A DNA stretch of 63,112 nt, filler included, from Reclinomonas americana ATCC 50394 (taxonomy: Eukaryota), in assembly GCA_048213135.1 (NCBI GenBank). It is 3 parts of 2 records of this genome, joined end to end, with 100 filler letters (N's around TTAATTAATTAA, not from the genome) between each part and the next. Parts side by side here need not be neighbours in the genome. Positions count along the whole stretch, not along the records: positions 1 to 26,972 come from PS015049.1; 2 more parts are not named here. The stretch is one strand, 5' to 3'. Made by a program: the position numbers and the translations under genes. A model generated the notes under the pieces. The model did not search any database. It was not told where the DNA came from and was given only the letters and a program-made list of their open reading frames with translations. Shown in pieces: positions 1 through 62,921 of the stretch. Each line of letters starts with the position of its first letter. Position 1 is the stretch's first letter.

Positions 1-3000
1 CGACGACGAAGACAACGACGACGATGACGGTGACGATGGCGATAGTGGAGCGTGGGGTGGAGTTGCGAAGGCGAAGAAAATGGACGTGGATCTGCCTGTG
101 CTCGACGAGAGCGCGGTTCCCGATGTGGTACGTGCCAGTCGCTGATGTGCACATGAACCGACGCTCACATTCCCGTCCAGAGCTTTCGAGGACCGTCGGC
201 CAAGGCTGAGTTGAACGAGTATTGCCAGACACATCGACTCTCCGTCCCGCCAGCTTATCTCGACTCCCAGTGGGGGCCGTCGCACGCACCGGAGTTTGAA
301 GCCTCCGTCAGCATTCGCCACGCGGCAGCTCCCGGTGGAGGTTCTTCCTTCCTGCCGCATATGTTCGTGCCAGTTTCTCTTTCGTGTCTCACGCTGCGAC
401 ATGCGGTGTCCATCTAGCGTTTGTTGGGCGCGGTTGGGGTCGATCGAAAAAGGATGCCCAGGGTCGAGCCGCCATTCAGGTTCTCAGTCTCATCAGGGGA
501 GCTGACTGTGGTGCCAGTGGCAGCGGTTACACCTCAGCTGTGGCGGCAACTGCGCCCAGAAAGAAGAGATACTCGCGCGAGGTATCGCAGCCTGTGGCTG
601 TCTCCCACTTTCCGTTGCTAAGCTGCTTGTTGTCAGGATCCTGCGGGCGAGCTCGTTCTCAGCGATTACGTCAGTGAGGCGCTCGGGAGGGCGCTTGCGC
701 AGGTGGACATGGTGCGTTCATCCCCCTGTATGATGTGTTGCACTCAGTCGCTTGCACTCATCGTGCGTCCGGCAGCGGAGCCTGGAGTTGCCGGTTGCTG
801 CTGCGGTGAGTCGCACGTGCCCTTCTTCTTTTGTGTGTGTTATCAATCTGCTGATCAGTGCGCGCAGAACTCCGGTGCAAATGCTTTTGTGGCCTCCGGA
901 GGCAATCGCACGGGGCCTGAGCGTGCGGCTGTGAGTCGTCGGCTTCTTGAGGCTCACGTGTCACGCATGTCATCGACAGAGCCCGCCTTTCTTCACCTCC
1001 AGGTTCTGTGAGAGTTCCTGCTTGATGCGTCCCGAGTCGATCCTCACCGTGTGGCGGGATGTGCAGGCGCAGCGGCAGTCGCTCCCTGTGTGGGCGAACC
1101 GGGAACAACTGCTTCACGCGATGACCAGTGAGGACTTTTACGTGTGCGTAGTGACCGGCGAGACGGGCAGTGGTAAGACGACGCAAGTGCCGCAGTTTGC
1201 GCTCGACGACGCGTTGCGGAGAGAGGTATGTGGCCTGCCAGTGTACTCCTCTGTGTATTGATGCTGATCTGTAGTGCACATAACACGATGCTCAGCGCGG
1301 TGCCGACACGCGAATTATTGTGTGCGAACCTCGTCGGCTCGCCGCAATCACTATCGCAGCGCGTGTGGCTGCCGAGCGCGGTGAGCCTCTGGGTCAGTCG
1401 GTCGGCTACTCGGTGCGCTTCGACTCGGTTCCACCCCGCGCAGAGGGTGGAACTATCGAGTTTGTCACCACCGGCACCCTTCTCCGTCGTCTTCAAGACA
1501 CGAAACAGCTAGATGGTGAGCATTCCGTGCCGACTCTGCCGCTCGGCGATCACCGCTAAACTGCAGTTTGACACGCGCAGGCATCTCGCATGTGTTTTTG
1601 GATGAGGCTCACGAGCGAACTATTGACGGCGACATGCTGCTCTACTTGCTGCGAGGTTTGACTCGCCGGAGTGGATCCCAATTGCGCGTTGTTGTCATGT
1701 CGGCCACCATCGACACATCGCTCTTCACCGACTACTTTGATGGCTGCCCGGAGATTGAAATCTTTGTCGACATGCACGAAGTGCAAGGTGAAGTGTCGCT
1801 GCTGTTGTCGACAACACGTGACTCTGTTTTGCTTCTCACGGCATGTGACAGACTTTTTCTTGGAGGACTGGTGAACTCTCGCGCGCTAACACACACGCAC
1901 ACACACTCAGCAGCGATCAGTCGACTGACTCTGTCGTTGTACTGTGCAGTGTGCGGCTGACAAACTTTAGAGGCGGTGAGCGTCCACGATCACAGTCACG
2001 AGTCTATTCGGACGACGACGTGAGTGTTCCTGCTGCCTTGCTTTCGTTCATCAGCAAGCTCATCTTGGCTGGACTTGTGCACAGCATGCGACAGAGAACC
2101 TCAACGTGCTATCGCGTGATGCGTATCCCGAGCCCATTTGTCGCGCCGTCGGGAGCATGGAGGAAGGCAACATACCGCCTGAGCTGGTCGCGGAGCTGAT
2201 CCTGTACGCTGCCTCGCGTCGGATCCCGCAGGCAGCCGTACTTGTCTTCTTGCCCGGCTGGTCCCACATTGACAGCCTCTATCATCATCTCTCGTCGCAC
2301 GTGACCATCGGTGAGTCTCGTGAGTCCGGTGACAAGCTGACCTGCGCTGCAACTGACCGATGTCTCTCACAACAAAGGCGATCGGGCGCGCTTCCTCCTC
2401 CTGCCTCTGCACTCGCAACTGACCCGCGACGACCAAAATGCCGTGTTCATGCCTGCGCCGCCAGGCGTGACCAAGGTACGCCACGCCATGTTCTCCTTGT
2501 AGCTACCATGCGCACATCTCTCACGACGGGTGTGACGCAGATTGTGCTGGCGACCAACATTGCCGAAACATCCTTGACGTTGCGTTCTCGCAGTCATCGC
2601 AACCTGACGCGTGCGCGGGAGCACTCATCCTTTTTGTTCCCACAGCATCGACGACGTTGTTTTTGTTATCGACACCGGGCTCGTGCGGGAAAAGGTGCAT
2701 CACGCACATCGAGCGCTGTCGTCGCTCGACGTCATGTGGATCAGCAAGGCCAGTGCGCAGCAGCGGCGCGGACGAGCGGGTCGTGTGCGCGACGGTTTTT
2801 GCTTCCGACTGTACACGCAAGCACGATACGAACGGTGCGCTGAGTCCTTTTGTTGTCGTGTTGCACGGCGGGTTGCTCACAAAGCCTCGCTACGCAGTTT
2901 CACCGAATACTCGACCCCCGAGATGCGCCGCATGGCACTCGACGAATTGTGCCTGAGCGTGCAGGCTCTTGGCCTCGGCGAAGCGCAACGCATTCTCTCG

Positions 3001-4400
3001 CAGACGATCGAGCCTCCGGATGCTGTGCAGGTCGAGAGCTCGGTGCGCAGACTGCAAGGTTGGTCGGCGGAGCGTGTGCGCGTGAGGCACGGTGGTCGTG
3101 GTGACTTGCACGAGCTCAGTCACTCCTCTTGGCAGGTTTGGGCGCCCTCAACGCCGCCGGAGAAATCACATCCCTCGGACGCCTCATGTCCAAGCTGCCG
3201 GTGGACGTGCGCCTCTCGCGAATGCTCATCACCGCCATGGTTCTTGGCTGCCGTGAAGAGGCGTTCCAGCTGGCGGCCATGCTGAGGTTTGTGTACATAT
3301 TCATTCATTTTGCGATTTCGGCACCTGTCTCTCATCCAACGCGCGAGCGCGCAGTTGTCGCGATCCATGGATTGCCACGCTCGACGAAGAGCAGCGAGAG
3401 CGCACTCGCAAATCGCGAGCGTATTTTGCGCGTGGACGCATGAGTGACCACCTGGCTCTCGTGCACGTACTGCAAGAGTGGATGGCGACAAGTCCTGCAG
3501 GTTCGTGGCGGCCATTCTCTGCTGGTTCTCCTGCTCGTACCCACTCGCAGTGATGATGCAGATCGGCGTGCGTTCTGTCGGCAACATGCAATGTCGCCGC
3601 ACGTGATGGAGACGGCGGAGAAGACGCTGCGACAACTGCACACAACAGTGGACGAGGAGCGTGCGCTGCGTGATCTGGGCGCCCCAATTGCAGAAGGCCA
3701 AATGCCGGCAGAGGTGATGCATACCACGAAAGGAGTTTCCGTTATTCCTATATCGCTGCGTGTTGTCGACTCTGATGCTCGCCTCCTCCTGTCTCCCAGG
3801 TGCCGTACGGGCTCCTGTGTGCGATTGCCTACACGGGCTTGCACCCGAATGTGGCAATTCACAATGACAAGAAGAAGTTCATGACGCGCGACAATCCGAA
3901 CACCATGCTGCACCCGTCGAGTGCCAACTTCCGCACGCACCACCACTACCCGCAGCGCACCTTCTTCTTTGATGAGATGACGCGGTCGTCGCAGGCATGT
4001 GTTGTCTGGCGGGGAGAGGGGGGGGGGGTTCGATAGTCTGCTCACTGTTGCTGGTGTGGCGCAGCAGCAAATCTTTTTGCGCAACTCGACCGTGGCCAGC
4101 CCGCTGCTGCTGGTTCTGTTTGGGTCGTTTGAGATTCGGTACCAGCAAGACAACCGCTACGACGAGCTCGACACCTTGCTGGAGCTCGACGGCTGGCTCC
4201 GCTTCCGCACGCGTCGCCGTGACATTGAGCTGGTGATCGGCCTGAAGCGTATACTCGACAGCGTGTTCGAGCGGCGAGTGAGCAGCGGCACCCGTGCACT
4301 GACGCAGGCTGACGAGCAGACTCAGAGGATCCTCCACGAGTTGCTGCCGGAGATCATGTTTGCCGACGAGTGGAGCTACACCAAGGAGCGTCCGTTGTAG
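1..4400 (+). CDS. DEAH/RHA-family RNA helicase with N-terminal dsRBD (DHX9/DHX30/DHX36-like), multi-exon, 5' end outside window
   Basis: Spliced exons give a dsRBD (LNEYCQ...GPSHAPEFEASV...GRGWGRSKKDAQGRAA), motif I GETGSGKTTQVPQF, motif Ia CEPRRLAA, DEAHER, MSATID, VFLPGW, LATNIAETSLT/IDDVVFVIDTG, SKASAQQRRGRAGRV and HA2/OB-type segments. Stop TAG at 4398-4400. Confidence 0.93.
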
Positions 4401-4602
4401 TACTCGAGAGAAAAGATGGAACCCTTCCATGTACCTCTCACTCGAAACAAGGGAAACACACAGTGAGTTGCATGAATGTGATCGAGCTCGACGTCGATGT
4501 ATGAGTTGTCCTCGTCCAGCTGCAACAACCTCACTCCTCAATCGAGCAATCACGAGGCAGCGTGCGTGAGGAATCTCGTTTGCAACTAGAGAAGAGGGAA
4601 CC

Positions 4603-7600
4603 ATGGGTGGTGGCACTCCCTCCAAGCTCCTGCGCGTGATACACTGCGACGATACCGTAACTGACCTCTCGTGGTGTCCCGATCCTGTGGCCGCCACTGG
4701 CGACCTGACGCCTTTCGCCTTGCACAACTCCGCCTCCACTCCACAGCTTTCCTCTGTGGGCGCCGCCACGTCATCGTCCAGCTCACGCCGTTTACCAACG
4801 CGCTCCACATCAACCACCATGTCATCGACGGGAACTGCTGCAGCAAATGGAGGCCACACCAAGACCAATGCTGTTCTTGCATCAGCGTGGTGGGATGGTG
4901 CGTTTCTCTCCCACTCTGCGTGAGAGAGAGAGAGTGTGTGTGCGCGCGCACAACAGTGACTGAGTGTGCGCGTGCGTGTGTGTTCACAGGAACGATTCAC
5001 ATGAATGAGCCGTTCACGGGTGTCAAGTTGATGAAGACGCTTCGTGCGGGCGGTAAAACCGGTCATGCGGCGCCGGTCACTGCAGTCACGTGGACGCGCG
5101 ATGGCAAGTTTCTGATCACAGGCTCCAAGGTGAGCTGTTTTTTATTGCACCGTCCTTGTATGGTGTGTACATTTGGCGCCAACAAGCTGGTGGGCCATGG
5201 TGATGCTAGGATCACGTGGTTCGGATATTCGATCCTCGCAAGGCGACGTGCCTGTGGAGCTTTGAGGGTCACGAGCGCACGGTGCGCAGCGTGTCGGCGT
5301 CGGCGCGCGACGATCACATTCTGGCGTCGTGTTCGGGCGACAACTCGGTGCGCGTGTGGTCGCTGAGCAGTGGGCGCTGCTTGGCCACGATTTGGAGCTC
5401 GGGTGGTGAGACGCACGATGTGGAGATTGCGCCGTCAGGTGCGGTGCTGGCCTACGGCTCGTACGACGGCACTGCGACAGTGTGGTCGATCGATTCGCAG
5501 CAGACGGTCATTACGCTGCATGGTCATGAGGGCCCGGTGCTGGCGCTCTCGTGGGGTCCGCAGTCGCACCGCCTGGTGACAGCATCGGCTGACAAGACGC
5601 TGCGCTTGTGGAAGGTCGGTGATTTCTGCTTGCATCCATCTCTCTCATACAGGAGGATATACGGGCACATCTTTTATTATATTCTTGTTGTGTCGTTCGG
5701 CAGGTGGCCACTGGCAAGTGCTTGTTCCACTTGAAGGGTCACACACAGGCTGTGCGCGCTGTGGCCTACAGCCCTAACGGCACGCACATTCTCTCTGGTG
5801 CCATGGACGATTCGGTGCGCATCTGGAGCACCTCCAATGGCACATGCTTGCAGCGCCTTACCGACCATGTGCGTCGTGTGTGCGCATGTGCGCGTGTCCA
5901 ATTGCTTGCTCATTTCGTGGTGCGCCACAACAGGGCGACTGGATTCACTCAGTGTGCTTTAGCGCCGACGGTGCATTCTTTGCCACGGGCTCTCGCGATC
6001 TCACCGTGTGCGTGTACAAGCTCAAGCGCAAGCATCTCAACAAGTGTCGTTGCGCCATTGTTCAGCGCTCTCCGCCTTGCCATTGCGTTTCATACCGACA
6101 AAACCTTGTCTCTCTTTGCGAGCAGGGCCACCGACACCGCCGGGCGACGAAGACGCGACTCTTGTCGGTCCAGCAAGCAACTCACCCGACGACACCTCGG
6201 GTACGGGCTCCCACCCGTTGTCTCTCGCATCCTTCGCAGTCGCAGCTGACTCGCTCTCGTTGCACAGCCGCCCTCAACGTGGACAGTGGAGATGCCGACG
6301 GCGTTGACACGCTGCAGTCGATCACGCCGGCGGGACCACGTGGTTTGGCCGCCTCGACGCCGGTACTTGGCGTGCCGTCGCTATCACTATCCGCCAATCC
6401 AGTCGGCAAGGCGACTGCGAAACGAAGTGCGTACGTGCATTAATTAGCATGTTCTTGGCCAGCACTCCACACTCATGCGCAACATATTGCTTGCAGCTGC
6501 GGGAAACGATGGCGCTCTGCCAGACGCCGGCGGACTGTACGCTGGCGGTGTCAGCGGTGCCAGTTTGGATCAGCTGGCGGGTCTGGCGGGACCATCACGC
6601 GGGTCTGTGCCGCCGTCTCCCGAGCCTTCACCCCTCCGTTCACCGTCCAAGGCACCCATGTCACCACTCGCCAATTTGTCGGCCGACGGTGTGTCAAGTC
6701 TTGGATCGGCACTAACTACAGAGCTGGCCAGTCTAACGACGCGATATATTGCAGACCGCCGGAATCTGACCGACCTGGCAGCCCTGCTGGAGGGCGAGGC
6801 CTCCTCCGGAAGCACGACAACACTGATCCCCGAGAGTGAGAGAGAGTCATTGTTGCGCATCGTCCAGTTGGCTCGTTGCTTGCTGCTGGTGGATCGAGCC
6901 GATGTTTCGTGTCCATTTTTGCCGCCTCGTGTTGTTACAGTGTTCGCGTATGAGCGCTTACACATGCACTGGTGCAATGCAGGCCATGGGAGTGGATGTG
7001 CTGACGCTGGAGAAAAAATTCTTGCAGAGTTCGCGCCGAGTGTTTGGTGCCGAACAGGCGTTAGCTGTGTTGCTCGGCTCGCCTAGTGCGTTGTCGCGCT
7101 TGTCGTAGTTGAGGTGCTGCACGTTACTAACGATGAGCACTTGTGACAGCTGGTGAGAAGAAACGCATGCCACAATTGATCAAGAAGCGCGATAGATATC
7201 GACAAGACCATTGCGCGCTGCTGGGTCTGATCCGCGCCAACCTTGCCGATCGCCTGTCGCTGGTGCGCTCGATCGACACGCTTGGCAGTGTGCTGAATTC
7301 GCCACCGCCGTCCGCTCTCGACTCTGTGGCCGATGGTGACCTGGCTCCACCGTTCAGCGGTGCCGAATGGATCCGACAGTACGCACAGCCTATTGTGAGG
7401 GCACTCAAGGCGGCGTCAGTGTCGGTCGACGATGCCGAGTATCGGGCACTTGATGAGTCGCTGATATCGCAGGTTGGTGTTCCTCACAAAGGTTCGTCGT
7501 CTGCTTTTCTTGGTCGGAAGACCTGACTCCTTGTGTGTGTGACGCAGGCCATTCATCGTTCCACCTCGTGGTCGTCAACGGCATACGAGCGATGTCTTTC

Positions 7601-10600
7601 GTTCCTGCCGGCGCTGCTGCGCACCGAGATGCCACTGACACACATGCTGCATCGCATGGCGGATGCGCACGAGGTGTTCACGCAGCTGACGACGACAGTG
7701 CACGAAGGCGCTGGTGAGGCTCTCGGTCGTCTGAATGAGGCACTGAAGACGTTTGTCCGCATGCTGGAGTTGTTGCGTACGGAGCGCGACGAAGACGATG
7801 AGGCGCAACCGGATCACGCCAAGCGGCAGCAAAGAGTTGCGTAGAGAGGTCGCGAGAGGAGAATGGCGTGTGGCGTGCGACTCACCGTTGTTACAGATTA
7901 TGCAAATGGAAGCGCGCATCTGTGTGCACGAGGATGAGCTGCTCGAGATGCGTGCGAAGGTAGCTCACTTGGCGAAGCGTGGCTTCCCCGAATACGTGTT
8001 CCAGTTGCAGCAGTCGCTGATCGACAAGGTTTCGTGGTGGCATGTACTGTTGCTTTGGCTCAGTTGCTGTCGCTCACCCACAGATGCTGCAGGTACCATT
8101 TGGCCTGCACCTGGTCGACGATGTAGAATTTGGTGCGTTGTTGCTCTTCTTCGTGTATGTTTGTACGTTTGTTCACTGACGATGGGCTGGATGAATGTGC
8201 ATGCAGTAATGGACACGGAACCCGGCGACTACACCATTGTGAATCAGATCATGAGTCGGCATCCGGTCGCCGTCATTCGGTGCGTGTGTGTGTGTTTCCG
8301 TTTGTTTGTCTCTGCGATATGCTTAAGCAGCAGCGTTGCCACGCACAGTATGGCCAACAAGTACTACTTTGCCAAAGAGTACAACATTCGGTCTGCTGAT
8401 CAGTGTCTGTGGCTGAGCAACGAGGTCAACACGCTGGCTCAGCTGCGCCATCCAAATATCGTGCGACTGAAGGGTTTCATGTCGGATCACACGTCCAAGT
8501 TTCGCATGCACTCCCCTTCGTGCATTTTTCGCGACGCAAACTCTCACGAAGCGGGGCGTCTGCAGGTCGCACTACGTCACTGTGATGGAGGACGTTGGCT
8601 CAGTCAATCTCCTGCGCGCACTGCCGACCATGGAGCTTCCGCAGATTCGCCGGGCCTTTGCTCAGCTCCTGCACGTGAGTCGTTCTGCGCTGCTGTGCAA
8701 CCTAGCTGCTCGCATGCTGCTGATCAAGAGTCTTGTGTACACAGGCCGTCGCGTACATGCACGATCAGGGCGTGGTGCATGCCAATTTGCACCCGGGCAA
8801 TGTTATTTACTCGTCCGACCGCGGCGTCATTGTCATTTCGTTTACATCCGCCCAGTTCCGCGAGCCTTTTAATGTTGATACGGGTCAGTCGGTGGCTTCC
8901 TCTTTCGTGTCTGCCTATCCCTTTGCGATGCTCACTTTGCGCTTGCAGCTGTCTCACCGCGAGCGCGGTACGGTGCCCCCGAAGTCCTTCTGCGACGGTC
9001 GGCACCGGAGCCGCCGTGCGACGTTTTCGCCGTTGGCATCATGCTGTTTGACGCCTTCACATCGACCTCGTACTCACTGGATATCGACCCGGCCGCCGGT
9101 GTTGTCATGCCGCGCATCAACGAGGCTCGTGCCGAACTGGGTCTGGAGCCGCTGGAGCAAACGCTGGCCGACGAACTTGACGCTGCGATTGCTCTGATGG
9201 TGCACATTCACTTGCGCTGTTGTCGTTGCTGCGCATTTTGCTGATTCGATCTTGCCACCACAGACGCACATCTCGCCCGGCAAGAGACCCACAGGGTGGG
9301 AGTTGCTGGCCATGCCAGTGTTCCGCGCTGTGCATCGTGGCGACGACGGCAAGGATGATGTTGCGTGCAAGCAGCAGCAGCAGCAGAGGATAAAGTTGAC
9401 ACGTGTTCTTGTCGCTGATGATTGCGTTCCGTGATCCCAACAGCCCATGGTGCGCTTCTGGACTGCGCTCTCTCGTGCGCGGCGCGATGCACCGTCACTC
9501 CTGCAGGCGCTGGCGATCGACGAGGTGGAGCTGAGCACGTCGCCGTTGCAGAAGCTGCGATTCGACAGCCGAACCATCTTTAATCACCTGGTGATTGAAC
9601 ACACGAGACGCGCCACCGACGCGGGTCATCCCGACCAGCGCCTGTTTGGACACGCGCATCACGCGCTCGTCAGTGTTGCGTGGCACGACTCGCTGCTGAT
9701 ATTGTTTGTGTGGCTGCTGACTTGCTGCTGCACAGTTCCTCCGGCGAGTGGTCGAACAGTCGCCGGCCATTGAGTTCCTCGGTTCGGGATCGTACGTCGG
9801 GTCTGGGCAGACGGCGTTCCCGGCGCCGTCGAGACGCGCGGGCAACCCGGTGTTGGCCAGCTCCATTTTTACTCTGTTTGGGCGTGTGCTGGCCAAGATG
9901 CTGGTGCTCGGCTGCAAGGTCCCCCGCAAGGTGAGAATGGCGATCTCTCCTCGTCGCCAACGATGATGGCACTCACGTTGTCTTGCTTGTGTTGCAGTTG
10001 CTGCCTCGGTTCCTGTTCAAGGTGCTGGCCACAACAAAGGCAGTGGAGGCGCCGGTGCTGGCCGACTTGCTGCCCGACCTGCCGGCCATTGCGCGGCACT
10101 TGAGATTGCTGCGATGTACGGTGGTCGACTGTTTGCACTTGTCGTTCACCGAGGGCATCGACGAGATGGGCCACTTTAGCGAAATCGACCCCGAGTTTGT
10201 GCCCTCGCACGCGTCGGACGGTGAGTCTTTTTGTGTGCTGTGTATAGGGCGACATGTACATATCCCGTGTTGCACAGAGGTAACGGAGGAGAATAAGGAA
10301 GAGTACATTCGTGCCGTTGTCGCTTCACAGTTGATTGGTTTCGGTCGGCGGGAGGTGAGGTCATGCTTGTCGCTTCTCTCACCTTTTGTGTGTCACTGAG
10401 TGTGCGTACATGCAACGACAGGCGTACTTGCGCATTCGAGCGGCCATGATGGAGGCTCTGGCGGTCAACGGGCGAGAGGAAGGGTGCGTGCTGCTGTCGA
10501 CGTTTATCTTGTTCATTCCCTGTGTTAGCTAATGCGTTTCTCTCGCAGATCGCTGTGGTGGGCCGCAGAGATCATGGAGGCCGACGACCTTCGTGGTCTG

Positions 10601-10972
10601 CTGGAGCACGCCGAGCAGGTGTCAGCGGAGGAACTGATTCACCACATTCGCTTCCATCCCGAGTTCGCCGCCAAGCGCAGCCCGGTGCCTGAGCAACTGT
10701 CGGAGACGCTAAGGGCGTGGGAACGCGAAAGCCGCCAGCATCGCTTGATCGACTTTGTCGAGTTTGTGGCCTCGCAGACACGCTTGCCGGTGCGCGACGC
10801 CTTTGCCGAGCGCGTGTCCGTCTCGGTAGTTCCACTGGCTGCGCCGGCGCACTTGCCGGAGAGCCGACCAGTGCACGCCGAGCTGTTCCTGCCAGTGGCC
10901 GGCTACGGATCGACTGCGGCACTTCGCGAGCGACTCGAGCGGGCCATGGATGGCATTTTAGAAGACGAGTGA
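4603..10972 (+). CDS. Multidomain protein: WD40 repeats + low-complexity/helical linker + kinase-like domain + C-terminal HECT-like domain, both apparently catalytically inactive
   Basis: WD40 repeats (GHERTVRSVS...SCSGDNSVRVW, GHEGPVLALSW...ASADKTLRLW, GHTQAVRAVAYSP). Kinase fold at about 8200-9330 (FAKE, NEV..LAQLRHPNIVRL, HANLHPGN, YGAPE, DVFAVG). HECT fold at about 9440-10972 (LFGRVLAKML, VTEENKEEYI, FVEFVASQTRLP, LPESRPVHAELFLP..YGSTAALRERLERAM). The junctions I checked can be joined in frame by GT-AG introns. Confidence 0.8.
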
Positions 10973-11044
10973 GAGACTACAGTTCATGCTGTAGATGGAG
11001 TAAACTTGCGGTCGACGGATCATTAATTGCTCAGTGGTTCAACA

Positions 11045-14000
11045 ATGTCGAGCGTGGGCGACGACAGCGTGTTGTCGACGCTGCGCAGCGTAAGCGAGTC
11101 GTTCTTTGTGCAACATGCATCGCTGGCCGCCACTGTGCACGCGTTGCCTTCATTCGATGCATGTCGCACTCTGGTCGGCACTCTCGTCGAGCATCATCTG
11201 AGCGGCGTTGCGTGCATTCTCTTTGGCGCCAGTAATGCATGTGACTGTGTGTAGGTGATAGGGAAGCCTCACCGCACCGCTTCACTCCACAGTTGCGCGT
11301 GTCGCGAGCGTGGGCGAGTGCGCTGCGTGTGGAGCACTTGTCGGAGTGGATGCATGCACAGCGGTGGTCGCACAGCGACGCCAGTGCATTCCTTTGTCTC
11401 TCGTTGCTGGCTGGCCTCGCGTCGCGCTGTGGAGAAGAGGCGGAGGGAGAGCAGAGAGGAATGGTGGCAAAGGAGGAGATCACGTGGACAGTCGTGTGCA
11501 TTCCGAGCTTTGCCGCGTACCGTTTGGCCCTGGGCGGCGAGTTCTTCCGCACGAGAGAGCTGGGTTCGTTCGCCTTTCCCACCAAGTGTATTGTGATGAT
11601 GGTTGAGTTGCGAGTGCTGATGGATGCACAGCCGCACGGCTCTTGCTGGAGAGTGCATTGCGATCGTCTGCGTTGCTGGATCGAATCGTTGCCGAGTGCA
11701 GTGCAGCGCTGCTGACCACCGACGAACAGGCGGTCTCACTGATCGGCTACAGTGTCGATGCCACTGCCGTGATCCACGGCGTCGGCAGCGGGGACAAGAC
11801 GCCGTACGTGACGGGTTGTGCATCGGTGGTGCGATCGATGGCCGACGCTCTGCTCGCCGGCACGCTCTCGGTACGCTGTTTCTCTTCTCCTCCGAGCGCC
11901 CTTGTTGACTGTTGATCTCATCATACCTTGCGTGCCAGTGTTCACCATCGATCGCCGCACTGCTGGAGGAGCAACTTGACAGCTTGGCACACGGCAGTGG
12001 ATCCGGTGCGGTGCGAGAGGCACGACGGTGGTACTTGTGCCCGTTGGTGTCGGCCGTGCTGGCGCACACTCCCGACTTTGTGCAACGGAACCAACTGGCG
12101 CAGGCATGTTGTGACACCGTGCTTGAGGTGTCAAGTGGCTGCTCACTGACATGTCGTGTCGCAGGTGGTTTTCCGCTCGCTGCTGTCGAGCCACTCATTC
12201 GGACCGTGGCACCGTGCAGCATTCTTCTCCTGCGTATTGCAGCTGTCGACTGAGCTCGCAGACGGATTGGGCACGCGCACTGGTTCGCGTCGCATTCTTA
12301 ATCGAAAAGTCTTGTTCGGTTCAGCAGCTCATTTGCTGCGTGGCAGGTGTGGATGTGCGCTTGGACGCCAGCTTCTGGAAGATGCTGCAGACCGGCATGT
12401 GCACCACCGAGTACGGTGAGCACATGGCGGCCGCTGCCGTCCTGCGTCGCATCATTCGTCTGTCGAGTGAGGCGGCGGCGGCAGAGGACGGTCGAGTCGC
12501 ATGGATACCGTTGCGTTGTCGGCGATGACAGAATATGCGCATTCTGCTCTGACTTGTGTGCTTTTCTCTCTCTCGCCAGAGAGTTCTCGTGGAGTCTGGC
12601 CGCCTGTGCACGACTGGAAGAGATGTGGGCACGCTACTTTCTGGTGTACACTACCGTTTCGGAGAACAGTCCGCACTTGTTGAAGGTGCGATGAGAGCAA
12701 GCGCTGAATTGCAGGCAGCCACTTGCTCATTGCCACAGTAACAGGCCATGTTTCGCTCCATTGATTCGCTATTGCCGACGGCGGAGGGCCGTAGTGTCGA
12801 CGGTTTGTGCTGATCGCGGTTCCTCTCATCGGTGTATGACAGACTGACAGACTGGCTCACGCAGCGAGTGTGGCGCCGCTGCACTTCTCCTGGATCGGAG
12901 TGCTATACATGCGCGGCTTTGCGCATGTCAACATGGCGGTCGTTCGACAGGTGACGAACCACGCACTGGCGTTCGCCTTTGATGCTCACCCACCGGGTTA
13001 CATGCCGGCTCATTTCGTGCACGGTGAGAAGTCCTTACCCAAATGGCGGAGGAGGGGAGTGTGCCGCTAAAGGTGGCTCTGCGCAGAGGTCATGTTACCG
13101 CACTTGGACATGAGTCGCTCCCTGCAATATTCGGCCGACATTCCTGCGGTGACCACGCACTTTCTGGCGCGATACATCGACAACGCAGTCGACCAGGTGC
13201 GTTATCGATGTGGTGCTGCATTCTCAAGTTAGGGGTTGTTTACTTACTGTGCACTACAGGTGGCCACGGCTTGCGGGCTCGTGGAGGCTGTGCGATCATT
13301 TGACAAACCCGAGCTGTGGACCACCATGTCCATTGTGACAGCGATTCGTCAGGCGGCCGGCACGGCTGCCAAGCGACACGTAGCTCTCGTAAACACTGAA
13401 CTGTTGCAGAGCATCACGATGCTCATGGATCTGCGTGATCGCGGCTGGTGAGTTGTCGCCGTGTGTGTGACCTGTGATTTGGCCCACAATAACACGAACT
13501 AGGACCATTGCGCTGGAGGCGAGACTCGATGTTATTCTCATGGATATTGTCTCGATTGGTCGCACGCCGACATTCGATGACACCCTGGCACTCGTGGACC
13601 TGGTGCGTTTTGTCGCACGCTTGAACCCGCGCGTCGTGGCGGCTCGCGAGGTGCCCGGAGTCGCTCGTTTCTGCGAGTGGGTGACCTCGGTCTGTGGTAT
13701 TCTTCGTTCTCATGGCATCCGCAATCATCTGTCTCACTTTGCGGCGCAGGCGCTGTCGTCTGTGTCGGAAACGATTGTCGATGAAGCCTTGCACGAGCTA
13801 TTTGCCAACAACGGTGAGCATTGACACGTGCTGCGTGTCAACACGCATCCTCCTCACTCATTGGTTGGTCGCCCTGCTTTTGCAGTACCGTCGTCGGCCG
13901 TGAGTCGTGGCTTGATGATGCTGATCTACTTTGTGGAGCCTCTGCAGACGCGTCTGACACGACTCGTTTGCGAGAAGACCGCCGAGTTGTACAGGTAGAG

Positions 14001-17000: not shown

Positions 17001-18088
17001 TCTTATCGACGTGCAGAACCTGATGCTCAGTGTGCGACTGGCGGGCTCCGAGTTCGCCAATCTGTTGGTGCACGACGAGCTGCTGCCCGGGTACCGTGAG
17101 CGCACGCTGCGCGATCTGGTCTGCGAGCTGCCGGCCGTTGTTCTGGACGACGACAGTCGAGAAAGCCAGCCGCTGTCGCCACCGGCGGATGAGATGGAGT
17201 GGACACAAGGTGCGTAATGGTGCTGCTAGTGATCGAGGAGTTGTCCTTGTGGCAGTTGCTCACCTCCAGTGTAATGCGCCACAGCGTCGCAACTGGTGGA
17301 GGCCAACTGGACGAGTCCCGAAGTCGAAAACTTTCAGCGCAAGGCTCGGACTGTCACAGACGAGACGCGTGAGTTCATTCTGGATCCAACGCGTGTGCGC
17401 AGTCACGGGTATGCTGAACCAACAAAGTGCTCGCTGTCCTCCAAATATCTATTCTGACACTGCGTTCACCAGACATCGGCACGAACTGATTCTGGTGGCC
17501 TCGCTCATTGACAAGGCCCCGAACCTCGGCGGCCTGTCGCGCACCTGCGAAATTTTCAATGTCGGCAAGCTGGTGGTCGCCGACAAGACTGTCATGCAGG
17601 TGCGCGCGCCTCACCGACACCACCGCACAGCGCTCCCTTGCGACTCACCGCGACACAGGATACCATGTTTGTGCAACTGGCCATGACAGCCGAGCAGTGG
17701 CTGCCCATCGAAGAGGTACCAGTGGCCGACCTACCGGCCTACTTGCACCGCATGCAACACGACTGCGGCTACACACTGCTCGGCCTGGAACAAACGTCGC
17801 AGAGCGTCAGTCTCGAGCACTTTGAGTTCCCCGCGCGCTCGCTACTGCTCCTCGGCAGCGAGGGCGAGGGCATCCCACCAGAACTCCTCTCGCTGCTCGA
17901 GCGCACCATTGAGATCCCGCAATTGGGCGTCGTGCGCTCCCTCAACGTCGTTGCGTACACAGCTGCGGAAATGTGTTTTTGAAGTGGCGCTAACTAATCA
18001 TCCGCAGCACGTCAGCGGTGCCGTGGCCATGTGGGAATACACCAAACAGCGAGCTTTCGGCGGGCATGCAGTTCCTCTTCCGCAATGA
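11045..18088 (+). CDS. TARBP1: tRNA (guanosine-2'-O)-methyltransferase, TARBP1/Trm3 family (long helical N-terminus + C-terminal SpoU domain)
   Basis: C-terminal SPOUT motifs LILVASLIDKAPNLGGLSRTCEIF, LLGLEQT, LLLGSEGEGIP, IEIPQLGVVRSLNV|HVSGAVAMWEYTKQ. Long multi-exon N-terminal region. Stop TGA 18086-18088. Internal exon boundaries are approximate. Confidence 0.88.
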
Positions 18089-21765: not shown

Positions 21766-23780
21766 TCAGCGCGTGACGTCGAGCAGCACGGCGGCGGCAG
21801 CGTGCGCGCCCGATGTCTCCTCCTGCTGCATGCGTTGTGCGGCCCGCTGTGCGTTTTCGCGATACCTCGACTGGTCCATAGCCTCGCCGAGCACCTGTGT
21901 CAGCTTCTTGCTGGTGACGTCGGTCCACTTGAGTGGTTTCGGACCAAAGCCCTGCTCCTGCACGCGCTCCGCCCAAAAGTGTTGTGATCCACCGTGCCAC
22001 AGGACCACCGTTGGGAGGCCACAGATGAGACCAGCGTGCACTGTGGTCGGTCCACCGTGGTTGATGGCTAGCCGCGAACGAGCGTACAGCCAGCGATGTG
22101 GTACAGGATCCGCAATCAGCAGCATGTGTTCTACGCAGGCAGGAAAGCATGATGAGTAAGAGAGTCCACCATTTCCTCTGTTCACGTGTGTTGCTGCTGC
22201 TACTCACCAGACTCGGGCGCCTCGTAACCACCGGTCAGGCACACGCCGCGCAATCTTAGCTTTTGCAGGGCCTCGATCATGGCCCGCAGCAACTTGTCCG
22301 CGCTGCCAGGATCAGCGTACGACAGAATCGCCTCCAACACCACGGCCACCATGGGCACTCGTTCCCGTTCCGCACGATCGAGGTACGCGACAAGCTCCGC
22401 TGATGGTGTGTACGATTCGTAGTCCTCCAGCAGCGCTCCAATCACGTGATCCTCACCAAACCTACGGCGAACGAAGATGAGGAGGGGAGTGCCGACGGCC
22501 ACTGCGAACTCTCCATCATATGCACGCACCAATCGTCGGGTTTCGGCAGCAACTCGCTCGAGTAAAAGTACAGTCGCGGCACCGAGTATTCAAACACGAG
22601 ATCTTCGGGACCACCATCCTCCTCAATCGGCAGCAGACCGTACTCGGCGCGCTTCGCATTCACCGCCTCCTTGTACACCGACTTCCATATCAGTTTGCGG
22701 CCGTAGGTCCACTTGATCTTGCTGACGAATTTGAACAGGCTCTTGCCGTCGCCAATCTGCACTCCGATCGTTGGTGAGACAAAAAGAAGAAACAAATGTG
22801 CCGAAGAAAGAAACGCAACTGGCGGTGCAAAGTCCTTGGTCGGTGTACTTGGATTGGCGTGCATGACTGCGCGGGGGAGAGTGGCGCATGAGGACCACAC
22901 AAACGTGAGGAGGGATGGAGGGATTTTCTTGACTGACCAACATAAGGTGTCTGCTGCGGGTATTCGGCCACCGACGACGCTCCCAGGGCCGAGAAGCTCG
23001 ACAGCCCAATGACATCAAAGGGTCCACGCTCGCGGATAATGTGCACCAAGTCATCGTTCCACGCGGCAATCAGCGGCTCAAGGAACGACCGCAGCACCTT
23101 GGCCGCAGTGAATCTGGTGTTTTCACCTCGTCGTCAACGCGACAATGGACACACGGCAGCACAACAGGCAGCAGTGGAGAAAGTTACGCACATGCTGAAA
23201 TCCGACTGCGACACGCGCCGCCCCAGCTCCGTGGTCCGCATGCCCTCCTCAAAACTGAGTCACGCTCCTCACTTGAGCGCATTCCACAATGGACGACGAA
23301 CGATGACGACACACACCTGCCACCGACCACAGCCGCCTCCACGCCACTCGCCTCCAACTGGTGCACGTAACCAGCATGCGTGGCCACACACACTGAGTGG
23401 CCCATCGACATGAGCAGACGACTCAGCACCAAGAACGGCTCCACATCGTAGCGACTGCCCACAATGGCCTACGAAGACACACAAGAGAGTGAGAGAGAGG
23501 CACAGGAGGAGGAGAAGAACGTCCAGCGCGCACAGACCGCGAGGAGAATGCGTCGTGCACCGCTTGCCTCGAGACCGCCCTGAGAGGAGGGAAATTGTTC
23601 GTCAGCCAAAAGGAGAAATGCGTGAGTGAAGAGTGAGTGTGTGACAGTGAGAGAGTGGCACGTGTGTGAGTACACAATGGAAAAGGAAGAAACACACTTG
23701 ACACAGTGCGCGGAATGAGCGACTGTGACACATGTGATTGACCGAGACTCGTGGACACAATCTGTGTGTGCAAGTGTGTG

Positions 23781-26972: not shown

Positions 26973-27072
26973 NNNNNNNNNNNNNNNNNNNNNNNNNNNN
27001 NNNNNNNNNNNNNNNNTTAATTAATTAANNNNNNNNNNNNNNNNNNNNNNNNNNNNNNNNNNNNNNNNNNNN
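26973..27072. other. Artificial scaffold-joining spacer
   Basis: 44 N + TTAATTAATTAA (stops in all six frames) + 44 N = 100 nt. Identical structure at 58900-58999. Confidence 0.97.
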
Positions 27073-27630
27073 GAGGGGGGCGATAAGACAACTCCGCGCA
27101 GTTTCTCCGATTCCCTGACTCGTGACAGCGTAGGCACTGAAAGCTCCGGATTGCGACGAACTCCTGTTGCACGAGGCGGCGACGGGAGCGATTCTCGAGG
27201 GCTCGCAGACCAACTTTTATGCGCTGTACGATCACGACTCGGTGTTGCGGACGGCCGGCGAGGGCATCCTGGAGGGCACCGTGCGACGTGTGGTGCTGGA
27301 GGTGTGCGAACGCGAGGGCATTCCAGTCGATCTCTCACCACCGCTGTTGAGCGAGATGGACCGGGTTCGTGCGTTCTTTGGGGAGCGCATGGCTGCTCTT
27401 CTGTTGTTGCTGATCTGCGTGGTGTACTGCAGTGGTCCGGTGCGCTGATCAGTTCCACCTCGCGTCTGGCGCTGCCGATCGATGAAATCGCCGTGCCGCA
27501 GGAGGGACAGCGAGTGACGGCCGACGACCCGCGTTGGCATTCGCCTGTGTCGTCACTGGCGCAGCGCATCTCGCAGTGGGTGGCCGAGGAGGTCGACGCG
27601 CACAGCGAGTTGTTACCGCCGTCATCGTAA
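27073..27630 (+). CDS. PLP-dependent aminotransferase class IV (fold type IV), 3' part
   Basis: ILEGSQTNFY, GILEGTVRRVVLEVC, |WSGALISSTSRLALPI. Stop TAA 27628-27630. N-terminus lost at the scaffold start. Confidence 0.85.
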   Translation, partial: EGGDKTTPRSFSDSLTRDSVGTESSGLRRTPVARGGDGSDSRGLADQLLCAVRSRLGVADGRRGHPGGHRATCGAGGVRTRGHSSRSLTTAVERDGPGSCVLWGAHGCSSVVADLRGVLQWSGALISSTSRLALPIDEIAVPQEGQRVTADDPRWHSPVSSLAQRISQWVAEEVDAHSELLPPSS

Positions 27631-27654: not shown

Positions 27655-30600
27655 TTACTTGATTCCACCTCCGTTTGGGTGATGTCGCAGTCGCTGCGAG
27701 ATGGCCTCGCACCAGTCGGCGCAGCTTGCGGCGTCCTCGGCTGTGAACAGGAATACGCGACCGGGTGTCACCAGCTGTGATGATCCAGATGAGAAAGGAT
27801 GTAATAGAAACAAGAGCCACAAGCCACCGACCTGCAGTGTGTTTGCGGCAGCACCAACGCGATCCGGAAACGCCAGCACGGTGCAGTCGCCGGCCTCTTG
27901 CAGTGAGATGGTGCGCAGCGGCTTGACCGCCCGCTCCGTTTTGAAATACGAGAGCGAGAATCTGTGCAGCACAAACCAGCGCCGCTTCCAGTTCTTCACA
28001 AAGCCACCGCGCTTGCTCAGCCACCCTCTGCTCTCATTCTCCATCAGCACTCAATCCCCTGCAATTCACATCCGAAAAAAGTGAGACGCAACTGCTTGTC
28101 AAACATGAGCGCCGTCGACCCGTGTCGTAATGGCTCGTCATCCACATCAGCTGCCGCCGCCGCTGCTGCCGAAGATGTCGTCGTCGCAGCAGACCCCCTG
28201 TAACTCTGTGCGCTGCTGCCGACCAAAGCCACCTAAGTGTGCGCAAGGTAAGTGCCAACATGTGCTTGTGGACGGATAGACAAAGACAAACGTGCCTCGG
28301 CCAGCGACACCTCGCGTCCATGTTTCCTGAAATACCGCGCGAGCTCAGCCGGCTGAAACAGCACGAGAGAGACGGGTGCTGGCGGAAGCAACTACAGTTG
28401 AATTGCACACGCGCAGTGAGGCAGTGTGAGCAGACGACTCACTGCATCGCGGCGCCTCACCGATCTTCTCAACAGCGGCAGCGACAAACCGAGTCGCCAC
28501 GAGCTGAGATCCTCATCGTGCATCTGTTGCGCCAGAGCGACGGCTCGCTCACGATGCCTCTCGCGCTCATCCGCCTCCTCGACCACGGTCGATACCAGCG
28601 TGTGCGACAAGACTGTGTGATTGATGAGCATCACATCGATTTTTTCACGCACCCACCTTGGTCACTCACCTAGCCACTGATCGACGGCCATCGGTACCGG
28701 CGACTCCACCAACTCACGCCGACGTGACAGCGTGTCCACTGCATGCAGCAGTGCGTCCTCCTTTTCGTATCTTCCGCGACCTCGTGATGGTCGTGCCAAA
28801 GCGCAAAAAATGCACGACACTGCCACCAGCACGTCGCCAGTTACCGAATCCACCGACGGATTGCGCGACACCAGTGCTGCTTGCCTGCATCCAGACAATT
28901 GTTTGTCACTGGAAGGACGGGAGGTGCAGAAGCCCAAAGAACGTCACGCAACGTGCGGAAGCCCTCGGTCGCGTTCGAAAACTCGGCGCCAGCAAGAGCA
29001 TCCACCGGGTTTCCCATGACATCCACCAGCCGCGCTGTAGTCGCATGCGACAGGGTGAGGAAGCTGACGAGCGGAAGAGGAAGCTGCAGCAGCACCCATT
29101 CGCAACTTATTCTCTCCAAACCGTCGCCGAGAACACTCATCAGCAACCGCGACGTCACAGCTGCATACATCATCATCGTCAGTATCGAGACGAAATAACC
29201 GGAGCACTGCTAATCGTACAAACCAAAGTAGAACATACATCGCAGCCAGGCGGCATCGTCTGTTCGACTCAATGTAGTGGCGTGCTATGCGGAGGGAGGT
29301 GGGAGGTGAGCCGAAGCACAATGACAACATTTCGCGTCGGGCTGCGCACCTCGTCAAGCCGAGCCGATTGTTCCAGGAAAAACTGTGCATCACCAGCGCG
29401 TCAGCAAACAATGGCATGTCCTTCCCACATTCTCCAACAAAAGGACGCACTCTTTCCAACGCGCCGGCGACCGCCGCGTTGGCATCCGGCGCCAGCAGCA
29501 ACCACATGACCAGTCGATCGAGAAACTCGAACAGGACCTTGCCGTGTGCCATGCGCGCCATTTGCGATCCGTCCAACATCACATCCCACGGCGATCGAGT
29601 CGGCGACCCCACCAGGCGCTGCCGAATCGACGATATGGTTGTCGGTGTGGATACCATGGACGCATCGTCGTCATCATCCGCGTCCGCAACGCGCCGACTT
29701 CCACTCTCACGATAGCCCCAAAACGTACACGTCTCCACCGGCACGTGCAGACCCATGGTGGCCGTCTCCACCTCCTTGCTTTGCAGACCTTGCAGGTCGT
29801 GGAACAGGGCCCCACAGTCGCGCACGAATTTGGCCAGCATCAGGAGACCAGCCTGACGGGCGACAAGAGTGTGAGCGGCACACGCAACACAGAGAGCAAA
29901 AATGCTGAAGAATACCTCGGGAAGTGCGCGCATCACAGCACCACTGCCGCCGCCGCCGCTGTTGCTCGACAGTTGCTGCACGATGGAGAGCGACGAGGCG
30001 GAGACCAGCGCCAGTGCATCGTCATCAGACGCGGTATGCACCGTCAAACCCAGTCGTTCCAGCGCGCTGTGCAGCATCCAAGCACACAGCCGCTCGAACC
30101 GTGCACGCACAAGCGCTCTCCGCGCACTCACAAGCTCCCACATTTGCTCCAGTGTAGAGTGCTGTTACAATGGGGTGAGGGGGGTTGCACAACACAACGT
30201 GGCGGCGATCGACAGCGCGCCGCAACTTCCATGGACGCGCCACCGGCGGTCGCCGATCGGCCGAAATGCTCCATCTCATTCATGAGGAGCACGAGGATGT
30301 CGGTGGAAGGGCGCGACGAGATGGCAAGACCGCGTGGCGACCCGGTGGGCGACGCCAACTCATCGCTCTCCATCGACATGCTGTCGAGTTCCATCTGCTG
30401 CGACAACTCCGGCATCACCAGCGTGTCACTCACCGTGCCGCCACCATCGCCACTCTCGGCAATCGCCTTCGTGGCCGTCAGCACATGCAGCACGCCACGT
30501 TCACCGCGCTGTGCGGCCTCCCGCAACATTGGCGACACGCCCGCCACGTACTCCACCAGTGTCAGCGATCCAGGAGCCGGCGTGCCATCGACAGCACCCG

Positions 30601-48674: not shown

Positions 48675-50183
48675 ATGCGACCACGTCGAAAGCGAAGGAT
48701 CGATGACTTGGATGAGTGCAGTGCCGTCGCCAAGGCACACGCACCGCGACGGTCCTCACGCAAGCCCTCACGTCCGTCTGTTGCTGAGGGTCGTCGCACT
48801 CCTGTCGCAAATGCGATTGTTGAGACCGGATCGCCTGAACGCAAGCGACGCCGGCTTGGTGGCAAGCCAATGGCGGCTGCGGAAGCCGAGCGAGTTGATC
48901 CTACCACTGTCCGGGAGTGGTGTGACCCCACTGGTGTCACCTACACAGTTGACGCTGCTCTGGGCAGCAGTGCAAGCATGGCTGTTGTGCAGGGTGTGTG
49001 TGTGTGTGTGCTGGTTGCGACCACCCTGTGTGCCTCTACAGTACACGCTGATACAAGACCCTCTCGCCCAGCTCACGTCGAAGATGTGATTGATGATGGT
49101 CCATCAAAATGTGTCGCGCTGAAGGTCAACACGCTGGCGGCGACGAGGCCGATGTACGCATTGCATGCCGAGTTCAAGATGTACGAACGGGCCACTGCGG
49201 CAGGGTTTGGTTTGTCGGCAGTGCGTGGATTCTCGTGGCCTGTCCCTGACTCTGTGTGATGCATGCGCCAACCAGAGCATCTGCCGACCATCTTTGGATA
49301 CTTTGTGTGCCGAGATCCCGCTGCCGAAGTTCTCGTCATGGAGCCATACGACTCGTCGCTGTGGCAACTGTTTCAGCAGCCGTCGACGCGCTGGACCTCC
49401 CGCACCTTCTGTCAGCTTGCGCTTGCGCTGTGCACGGTGCTTGACCAGTTCCACTCCACTGGCATGGTGCACTTTGACATCAAGCCTGACAACATCCTGC
49501 TGCGGTACAACGATGCCGAGCATGAGATCCGCAAAGTGGTACTCTGCGACCTCTTCACGGCACGGCCAATCGTGCCGTTGAAGTGGCACTTTGATTGCGG
49601 CACTCCTCCGTACCGCAGCATTCGGACCATGCTGAAGAAGCGTGAGTTCTTTCGCCTCTGACATCCGCGTCTTGTCGTGATGGTGTCTCACTGATCCACA
49701 ACTCCAGCTCAATCACGCTTTGACGACTTCGAGAGTCTTCTCTACACACTCCTTTGTGTGATGACGTGCCGACCACTTCCGTGGCTGTATGCCAACGACA
49801 GTGATATTCTGGAACGAAAGCTCTCTTTCCGCCAGGCGGTGCTTTCGGGCTGTGATGTTGTTTCGGCCCTGGTCTCTTCCAGCGAGAACACCGGTGCGTG
49901 GATGTGGTTCGTGACTGGTGGTGCTTGTTGGTGTTGTCATTCATTGTGCAACACAGCACCTATGGAGGGGGACCGGAGCGCCGTGCTTGCCACCGGGATT
50001 GGTGCCCTTTCCGAGTTCGCGCGTGTCGTGTTCAAGCACTCAAGTAGCCGTGACGCACTCGTCGCGGCAGCTGGCGAGGCTGCTAGCAGAGAACTGCTGG
50101 AGCCCTTCTGCAATGCTCTGGCTGTGTCCGTTGGCCATCATCTGCTCCTCCCTATTTGTTCAACCACCAGTGAGACTCAGTGA
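48675..50183 (+). CDS. Divergent casein-kinase-1-group Ser/Thr protein kinase
   Basis: VALKV, LVMEPY..SL, VHFDIKPDNIL, LCDLF, GTPPYRSI and QSRFDDFESLLY...LPW (compare CK1 QSRRDDLESLGY...LPW). Basic N-terminal extension. Confidence 0.8.
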
Positions 50184-51312: not shown

Positions 51313-51790
51313 GTCCTCCTCCTCCTCCTCGTCCTCCTCGTCGAGCAAGACGCAGACGACCAAGTCGGGCTCGTCGACCACCACCACCACCACGACGACG
51401 ACCGAGTCCGTGTCCACTCGTGCCACGTACTCGTCTTCCTCGTCGGGCTCGTCCTCGCGTGCTGCGGGAGCCGGTGGACCGCCGCAGGGCATGCCAAGTT
51501 GCGGCGACGGCGGTGGGCGTGTGTATGTGTGTGTGTGTCACTCATCCTCTGTTGCGCAGGTTGGGTGACACCCGACATTTTCCAGCGCATGATGGGCGAC
51601 CCGGAACTCATCAAGATCCTCACCAACGAAAAGGTCCGCCAGTCTTCGCCGACCATCTCCATCTACGCTTCTCCCTCACCCTATTTATTTTTTGCGCCAC
51701 AGATTGCACGCGCAATTGCCGAGATCTCTGCCGACGGCAGCGCGTTTGCGAAATACCGAAACGATCCAGAGGTCACGGTGCCTTTACGAA
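51313..51790 (+). CDS. ST13: Hsc70-interacting protein (Hip) C-terminal STI1/DP domain fragment, opposite in orientation to the rest of the gene
   Basis: GPPQGMP...MMGDPELIKILTNEK|IARAIAEISADGSAFAKYRNDPE. Small contig between N gaps. Confidence 0.7.
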
Positions 51791-52156
51791 ATTCTCCCAG
51801 TTGGTCGGGCAGGCCATTGATCCTCAATGAGCGCCGACATTATCACTCGACACTNNNNNNNNNNNNNNNNNNNNNNNNNNNNNNNNNNNNNNNNNNNNNN
51901 NNNNNNNNNNNNNNNNNNNNNNNNNNNNNNNNNNNNNNNNNNNNNNNNNNNNNNNNNNNNNNNNNNNNNNNNNNNNNNNNNNNNNNNNNNNNNNNNNNNN
52001 NNNNNNNNNNNNNNNNNNNNNNNNNNNNNNNNNNNNNNNNNNNNNNNNNNNNNNNNNNNNNNNNNNNNNNNNNNNNNNNNNNNNNNNNNNNNNNNNNNNN
52101 NNNNNNNNNNNNNNNNNNNNNNNNNNNNNNNNNNNNNNNNNNNNNNNNNNNNNNNN

Positions 52157-58780: not shown

Positions 58781-58786
58781 GTGGGT

Positions 58787-59039: not shown

Positions 59040-62921
<3,882 letters not shown>

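Follow-up and report, generated by a model that had tools for sequence, protein, structure and literature searches.

Single-chain combinations of a eukaryotic protein kinase (ePK) domain with a HECT domain have been described in protists. Leishmania major LmjF35.4000 combines three TPR motifs, an ePK termed 'unique' and a HECT domain (Parsons et al. 2005, PMC1266030). The 'GL-Bikonta' family of Naegleria gruberi and Ectocarpus siliculosus consists of highly divergent HECTs, some of them with unusual kinase domains whose function is given as unknown (Grau-Bove et al. 2013, PMC3673628). Here we analyse a locus of Reclinomonas americana ATCC 50394 (assembly GCA_048213135.1) that occupies positions 4603-10972 on the + strand of a 63,112-nt window, the whole stretch of DNA that was studied, in which positions 1-26,972 are PS015049.1. 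Its coding-like exons specify a WD40 propeller, a kinase fold and a HECT fold in this order, and residues on which catalysis by the last two folds normally depends are missing.

Comparison with described proteins

As proposed here for the Reclinomonas locus, LmjF35.4000 joins an ePK and a HECT to an N-terminal repeat-type interaction module. As described, the Leishmania module is built of TPR rather than WD40 repeats, and the protein, on whose catalytic status the description is silent, belongs to an organism without cis-spliced coding genes. No TPR family was matched at an E-value (E) of 0.1 or below in the 17 open reading frame (ORF) pieces of the Reclinomonas locus that were scanned with Pfam. 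The GL-Bikonta proteins can be likened to it by description only: they too pair a divergent HECT with an odd kinase domain in non-opisthokont organisms. The passages on this family mention no WD40 repeats and leave unstated whether its catalytic Cys or its kinase motifs have been lost. Two further proteins treated in the same source share other traits with the locus (PMC3673628). G2E3 retains, in an otherwise functional protein, a HECT reported to be non-functional, and its ligase activity is supplied by PHD/RING-like fingers; it has neither a kinase nor a WD40 domain. HERC1, a very large animal-specific protein, combines WD40 with HECT and differs in that its HECT is active and is accompanied by RLD and SPRY domains. 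No RLD, SPRY or PHD/RING-like finger is among the Pfam matches of the 17 ORF pieces.

Kinase folds that serve for docking also occur in conjunction with WD40 repeats. VPS15 is a pseudokinase scaffold with a kinase-like domain, helical repeats and WD40, and in the Tribbles-COP1 system a pseudokinase docks on a WD40 ubiquitin ligase (E3). Both would resemble the Reclinomonas locus in this use of the kinase fold, and Tribbles also in its association with the ubiquitin system. The domain order of VPS15 is reversed relative to the locus, and the parts of Tribbles-COP1 are separate proteins with an active E3.

The first-pass annotation of this DNA did not recognise the architecture and left room for its being catalogued already. 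Fusions of kinase and HECT have indeed been published (PMC1266030, PMC3673628), but no paper describing WD40, a dead kinase and a Cys-less HECT together was found in full-text searches of the literature, in which InterPro was not included. The Reclinomonas architecture plausibly adds WD40, and the loss of both active sites, to the known kinase-HECT fusions.

Domain content and gene model

We give roughly even chances to the interpretation that 4603-10972 is one intron-rich gene for a non-catalytic WD40-pseudokinase-pseudoHECT scaffold or regulator, for which both a single mRNA and a mechanism are inferred. That the three domains lie in one ORF appears somewhat more probable than that. Pfam matches WD40, Pkinase and HECT, collinear on the + strand, in agreement with the domains and order that the first-pass annotation proposed. 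Its description of both enzyme folds as dead is likewise borne out by alignments to solved structures, in which HAN stands for HRD and SFT for DFG in the kinase, and Val for the catalytic Cys of the HECT.

The coordinates first assigned to the gene are exact. The proposed start codon (4603-4605) is the first ATG past an in-frame TGA at 4567-4569, in the context ACCATGG, and the stop is the TGA at 10970-10972. Between them, a GT-AG model with 26 exons and 25 introns encodes 1551 amino acids (aa) on the + strand. The introns measure 51-92 nt (median 67), their phases are correct, and seven of them have the donor GTGCGT. This model was built by a custom dynamic-programming (DP) script that chains exons by codon log-odds together with donor, acceptor and branch scores, and it was then corrected by hand. 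Splice scores come from a crude position weight matrix (PWM) model, whose training introns score 14.3-24.9.

Exons that were outside the training of the codon table, namely those of the linker, kinase and HECT regions, have in-frame scores of +0.27 to +0.78 per codon, with negative values in the other frames. Candidate introns scoring at least 15 number 33 on the + strand versus two on the gene's entire opposite strand, where none of 21 ORFs has a Pfam match. The guanine-plus-cytosine content (GC) of the exons is 0.61, that of the introns 0.44-0.63, and that of the two flanking intergenic stretches 0.50 and 0.45. Some exon ends are still uncertain: 8498 versus 8519, 7472 versus a micro-exon alternative, and an insert in exon 1. 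Two features of earlier models were discarded. The long introns of the first DP pass skipped genuine WD40 blades, and intron 9708-9759 (score 3.3) gave way to 9669-9735 (score 15.1).

The pseudo-HECT domain

The last exon (10549-10972, including the TGA at 10970-10972) encodes a HECT-like C-lobe that is recognised by Pfam, by a profile search of the PDB, by the Atlas and by fold search. Its match to Pfam HECT (PF00632) reaches 27.5 bits, above the cut-off of 23.9, and covers positions 176-297 of the 306 in the profile. The domain occupies the very end of the protein, as it does in HECT ligases, with profile position 297 reached seven residues short of the stop. When the C-lobe exon was compared by HMMER with 1.84 billion representatives, two matches were returned, of which one (P0001) was set aside as a spurious match to repeats. 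P0002, the second, is a 235-aa protein from a 1992-nt contig of a Logan assembly and is 34% identical to the C-lobe exon. It is a clear HECT (Pfam E 2.4e-12, 47.6 bits) with the Cys motif LPVAHAC. A profile made from the C-lobe exon and P0002 retrieved HECT ligases in all 20 of its distinct PDB matches (best E 3.3e-4), among them HUWE1, NEDD4, SMURF2, Ufd4, WWP2, UBE3A and NEDD4L.

Structural comparisons give the same assignment. All 30 language-model look-alikes of the C-lobe in the Atlas are HECT clusters. An AF2 (AlphaFold 2) model of the lobe has a predicted local distance difference test (pLDDT) score of 69.8 and a predicted template modelling (pTM) score of 0.68. When this model was searched with VIA-align, the 18 best rows were all HECT, with Z 5.2-6.9 and root-mean-square deviations of 2.5-3.5 A across 75-91 residues, before Z fell to 3.5 in the row that followed.

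Val 1519 of the C-lobe (GTG, 10871-10873) occupies the place of the catalytic Cys. The surrounding motif, LPESRPVHAELFLP, aligns to LPSAHTCFNQLDLP of HUWE1, LPRAHTCFNRLDLP of NEDD4 and LPVAHACACALRLP of P0002, and Val stands where these have their catalytic Cys. The C-lobe exon has no Cys at all, so that a HECT~ubiquitin thioester is impossible there; the only Cys residues of the HECT part are in the N-lobe, at aa 1285, 1330 and 1335. The HECT motif LP...LP..GY is retained. Because P0002 keeps its Cys, the Val would represent a derived loss in a family with potentially active members.

The HECT-like N-lobe (9444-10548) is tentatively assigned to exons 9444-9668, 9736-9930, 9998-10220, 10278-10354 and 10422-10483 from Pfam and from codon scores of +0.43 to +0.63. 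The five introns of the HECT region (9669-9735, 9931-9997, 10221-10277, 10355-10421 and 10484-10548) score 14-23. Exons 9444-9668 and 9736-9930 have no Pfam matches.

The pseudokinase domain

The kinase-like region (aa ~872-1150) comprises exons 8207-8279, 8331-8498, 8566-8674, 8745-8883, 8949-9199 and 9264-9359. Three of the 17 ORF pieces match Pkinase (PF00069), and they do so collinearly, at profile positions 18-72, 108-146 and 162-196 (E 0.0019, 0.00085 and 0.00087). The 46-aa exon at 8745-8882 matches 336 distinct PDB sequences at E<=1 (best 5.2e-4), and the best 60 of these 336 are all kinases. Exon 8332-8496 likewise matches 106 distinct PDB sequences at E<=1, the best 60 of which are all kinases. 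Within it, NEV...LRHPNIVRLKGF aligns to the alphaC-beta4 region of RAD53, NEK2 and Aurora kinases. No matches were returned for exon 8949-9197 by single-sequence phmmer against the PDB, and none were added when the PDB query was extended to the region of the Gly-rich loop.

The catalytic loop reads HANLHPGN (8778-8801, aa 1000-1007) and is aligned by HMMER to HGDLKPSN of 9gmp_A and HRDLHPGN of 3uib_A. The catalytic Asp of the HRD or HGD motif of solved kinases is thus replaced by Asn. In alignments to solved kinases, SFT (8838-8846, aa 1020-1022) replaces DFG or DFN, with loss of the metal-binding Asp. The position of the Gly-rich loop reads MSRHPV, without Gly, according to a manual alignment only. 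Lys 911 in FAKEY (8374-8376) is the probable beta3 (VAIK-type) Lys, as judged only from its position 16 residues ahead of the NEV Glu in alphaC. The non-catalytic kinase motifs APE and HxN...N are retained. Judged from these residues, the fold cannot phosphorylate by the standard mechanism. A second Pkinase exon is present in the window at 49260-49658 on the + strand (E 6.1e-10, profile 65-165) and shows no similarity to the kinase of the studied gene by tblastn at E<=1e-3.

The WD40 propeller and linker

The propeller (aa 1 to ~373) is assigned by Pfam to exons 4603-4897, 4990-5129, 5210-5614, 5704-5868 and 5934-6045, which are separated in the gene model by introns 4898-4989, 5130-5209, 5615-5703 and 5869-5933. 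Pfam input consisted of stop-to-stop ORF pieces of the + strand. Four of the 17 match WD40, the best at 77.9 bits (cut-off 27), the next at 46.7 bits and two more weakly; many beta-propeller families also match these pieces. Seven blades were counted by eye on the model, with the propeller complete by ~6030. Exon 1 contains a Ser/Thr-rich insert of ~60 aa whose coding score is low, and exon 5210-5614 scores +0.55 per codon in frame.

The linker (aa ~451-872) is encoded by exons 6497-6688, 6755-6888, 6941-7085, 7150-7472, 7548-7835, 7897-8028 and 8084-8132 and has a high content of Leu, Ala and Ser. Seven of the 17 ORF pieces, including all large linker pieces, have no match of any kind, and the only Pfam family at E<=0.1 between 6497 and 8132 is a weak Adaptin_N in one of the 17 (E 0.098). 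Introns 6689-6754 and 7086-7149 have branch sites that resemble CTAAC/TACTAAC.

Junctions between the domains

The exons had been said to splice in frame, with no stops at the junctions that were checked. A GT-AG path with an ORF of 1551 aa does exist, but from WD40 to linker it depends on introns that score 7.1 and 10.1. The absence of stops does not hold: an in-frame TGA lies at 9432-9434, in frame 0, between the tail of the kinase and the start of the HECT. What survives of the claim that the gene is intact are its open frames and coding-like codons; this TGA, which no well-scoring intron removes, does not fit it.

The junction zone between WD40 and linker (6046-6496) contains the small exons 6126-6200 and 6268-6426, the candidate introns 6046-6125 and 6201-6267, and intron 6427-6496. 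The last of these scores 15.3 without having been used in training, and has a GTGCGT donor, a branch-like site CTCAT and the acceptor TTGCTTGCAG. Frame 0 meets no stop between 5778 and 6440, and the exon that precedes intron 6427-6496 lacks an in-frame ATG all the way back into the WD40 exons. The doubtful segments are exon-like in composition (GC 0.65-0.69; 0.65 for 6126-6426), and no 150-nt window between 5750 and 8026 has a GC below 0.52. A separate downstream gene would require either a spacer of 31 nt or a long GC-rich 5' untranslated region that includes an intron, with translation then beginning at ATG 6658. One alternative path, from a donor at 6008 or 6044 to the acceptor at 6125, was rejected; it yields a tail that is rich in Arg, does not look like coding sequence and reaches a stop at 6246. 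On the sequence as it stands, WD40 and linker are likely joined in one gene.

At the junction of kinase and HECT, the TGA at 9432 is followed after only 12 nt by an ATG of that frame (9447), a spacing that favours a link between the two domains. The best candidate for an intron that removes the TGA is 9360-9443 (84 nt), chosen for its composition. This stretch is intron-like, with a GC of 0.52 versus 0.64 and 0.68 in its flanks, stops in three frames and a codon score of ~0, and it has CTGAT 25 nt before its AG. Its donor, GTTGCGTG, agrees at seven of eight bases with GTTGCGTA, the donor of intron 7836-7896. A CAG repeat at 9369-9386, which would give poly-Gln if translated, lies inside this presumed intron. 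Reading TGA 9432 as a residue, such as selenocysteine (Sec), was rejected as unsupported, because the terminal stop of the gene is itself a TGA, located where the HECT profile ends; Rfam shows no selenocysteine insertion sequence (SECIS) element. A union of kinase and HECT in one gene is about as likely as that of WD40 and linker.

Genomic setting

The window has a GC of ~58% and, with its many short introns, a eukaryotic character. Upstream of the studied gene, at 157-4400 on the + strand, is a multi-exon helicase gene with Pfam matches to dsRBD (157-414), HA2 (3105-3440) and OB_NTP_bind (3776-4033), all on the + strand. Its TAG stop (4398-4400) precedes ATG 4603 by 202 nt. On the other side, the next coding-like ORF (10973-11254, + strand) starts at ATG 11045, 72 nt past the stop at 10970-10972. 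From this ATG it scores +0.29 per codon in frame with a GC of 0.58, and the 72-nt spacer has a GC of 0.45. Spacers of 202 nt and 72 nt indicate that the genome is very compact. No AATAAA-type signal is present in 4301-11400, and Rfam at gathering scores found no RNA families across the whole 63-kb window.

Other parts of the window contain Pfam-supported exons for a SpoU methylase (17512-17979, + strand), a glycosyltransferase (21769-23468, - strand; EryCIII-like_C/UDPGT and Glyco_transf_28), a class IV aminotransferase (27134-27445, + strand), a PH domain (27658-28050, - strand) and an ESCO-type zinc finger (58235-58786, + strand). Positions 26973-27072 and 58900-58999 each consist of two 44-base runs of N with 12 bases between them, and larger N runs occupy 50422-55599 and 61767-62052. 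An apparent low-GC island at 50-56 kb was dismissed as an artefact of the N runs. In a tblastn search of the window, all 22 pieces fell inside the studied gene, which rules out a paralogue elsewhere in the window.

Proposed function and alternative explanations

From N to C terminus, the proposed protein would consist of a seven-bladed WD40 propeller, a linker of ~500 aa, a kinase fold without the Gly-rich loop, HRD Asp or DFG Asp, and a bilobed HECT without its Cys. It may descend from kinase-HECT ligases of the kind known in other protists and now be a scaffold or regulator that does not catalyse. Docking could take place on surfaces of the WD40 and of the dead kinase, and the dead HECT could be a surface that still binds a ubiquitin-conjugating enzyme (E2), ubiquitin or an active HECT paralogue. 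A more specific version, which we put forward tentatively, is that a protist kinase-HECT lineage lost both active sites together while keeping the folds, to yield a single-chain allosteric partner or decoy for a Cys-bearing paralogue or for E2~ubiquitin.

A number of results weigh against a single gene with this function. The weakest junctions of the model coincide with two domain boundaries. Introns 6046-6125 (7.1) and 6201-6267 (10.1) have good acceptors and weak donors. Intron 9360-9443 is poor in the PWM splice model and is absent among candidates scoring at least 9, and every intron able to remove TGA 9432 scores 8.5 or less. The scores at these junctions resemble those of a false intron (6-6.8) that the DP script, when left free, used to run on beyond the genuine stop at 10970 and enter the following gene. 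Since the script can bridge a true gene end, an open spliced path alone is weak evidence, not above chance; the domain matches, by contrast, greatly exceed chance expectation. Leave-one-out scores of the accepted introns span 5.3-18.3, such that the splice model discriminates poorly. The domain assignments have weak points too. The Pkinase pieces score 18.1, 19.2 and 19.2 bits, each under the 31.7-bit Pfam cut-off, and the N-lobe ORF 9935-10399 matches HECT profile positions 61-151 at E 0.0044 and 17.1 bits, also under the cut-off. Foldseek found no match to the C-lobe model at E<=0.001. Single-sequence phmmer with the C-lobe against the PDB returned no HECT and three non-HECT matches at E 0.7-0.94, which implies that the domain is very divergent. 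No full-length homologue was found in the protein and metagenome searches: the C-lobe exon against longer proteins gave 1937 candidates with none at E<=0.001, profile A1 gave 8000 with none at E<=1, the kinase exon gave one candidate that did not pass, and metagenome scans gave 496 pattern matches for A1 and 220 for the WD40 exon, with none confirmed in either.

The spacing from stop to ATG in this genome goes down to 72 nt, and the locus could therefore be two or three tightly packed separate genes, an explanation that we consider possible but less probable than one gene. A WD40 protein would end near 6246 or 6441, and a protein of linker and pseudokinase would start at ATG 6475 or 6658; independently, the pseudokinase protein could end at TGA 9432 and be followed by a stand-alone Cys-less HECT from ATG 9447. 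The coincidence of poor splice junctions with domain boundaries fits this arrangement, as do the compact spacers of 202 nt and 72 nt, the ability of the DP script to bridge a gene end and a propeller that by blade count is already complete by ~6030. At the second boundary, TGA 9432 is succeeded 12 nt on by an ATG and then by a strong donor-like site, GTGCGC, directly after ATG 9447, which would open introns 9450-9506 (score 14.8) or 9450-9551 (score 16.5), as expected for a separate HECT gene; a decoy site or alternative splicing would be other readings of this donor. However, there is no ATG in any of the three frames between 5887 and 6291, and the well-supported intron 6427-6496 joins two open frames. 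The would-be intergenic segments have a GC of 0.64-0.69 versus 0.45-0.50 in the two real ones, and spacers of 12 nt or 31 nt would be much shorter than the 72 and 202 nt observed. ATGs 6475, 6658 and 9447 have C at position -3, whereas 4603 and 11045, the only two cases for comparison, have A. Published descriptions also give precedent for a kinase and a HECT in one protein (PMC1266030, PMC3673628).

The locus might instead be a former kinase-HECT ligase in early pseudogenisation that makes no functional full-length protein. Both catalytic centres are gone, TGA 9432 interrupts the frame without a convincing intron, and the only relative found, P0002, retains its Cys. We regard this as unlikely, however. 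Besides TGA 9432, all 1551 codons in 26 exons are open with correct intron phases, and every domain has the codon usage of coding sequence, which holds also for the HECT exons past the TGA, at +0.43 to +0.63 per codon; open frames and coding-like codon usage argue against plain decay. The motifs that mark the folds without serving catalysis (APE, HxN...N and LP...LP..GY) are kept as well. Some proteins first named pseudokinases later proved active, and one or both domains could still be enzymatic by a non-standard route, for example if the kinase were an atypical one whose catalytic residues had moved. The probable beta3 Lys is retained, together with the Glu of alphaC, the Asn of the catalytic loop and the APE motif. 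Such activity is nonetheless very improbable given that the catalytic-base Asp, the DFG Asp and the three glycines of the loop (the latter by manual alignment) are all missing, and that a C-lobe without Cys rules out a thioester there.

Implications

If the locus comprises separate genes or is decaying, what is left of the finding is three divergent domains of an ordinary kind. If it is one gene that works as proposed, it would encode a double pseudoenzyme that links phospho-signalling to the ubiquitin machinery. Pseudokinases are well-studied regulators, whereas Cys-less HECT domains, and what they do without catalysis, have barely been described. The dead-HECT protein and its Cys-bearing relative would form a tractable pair for studying what a HECT does without a thioester, and they would raise questions about binding of E2 or ubiquitin by the HECT fold and about its oligomerisation with active ligases. 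A gene of this kind would also bear on why kinase and HECT domains have been fused repeatedly in protists.

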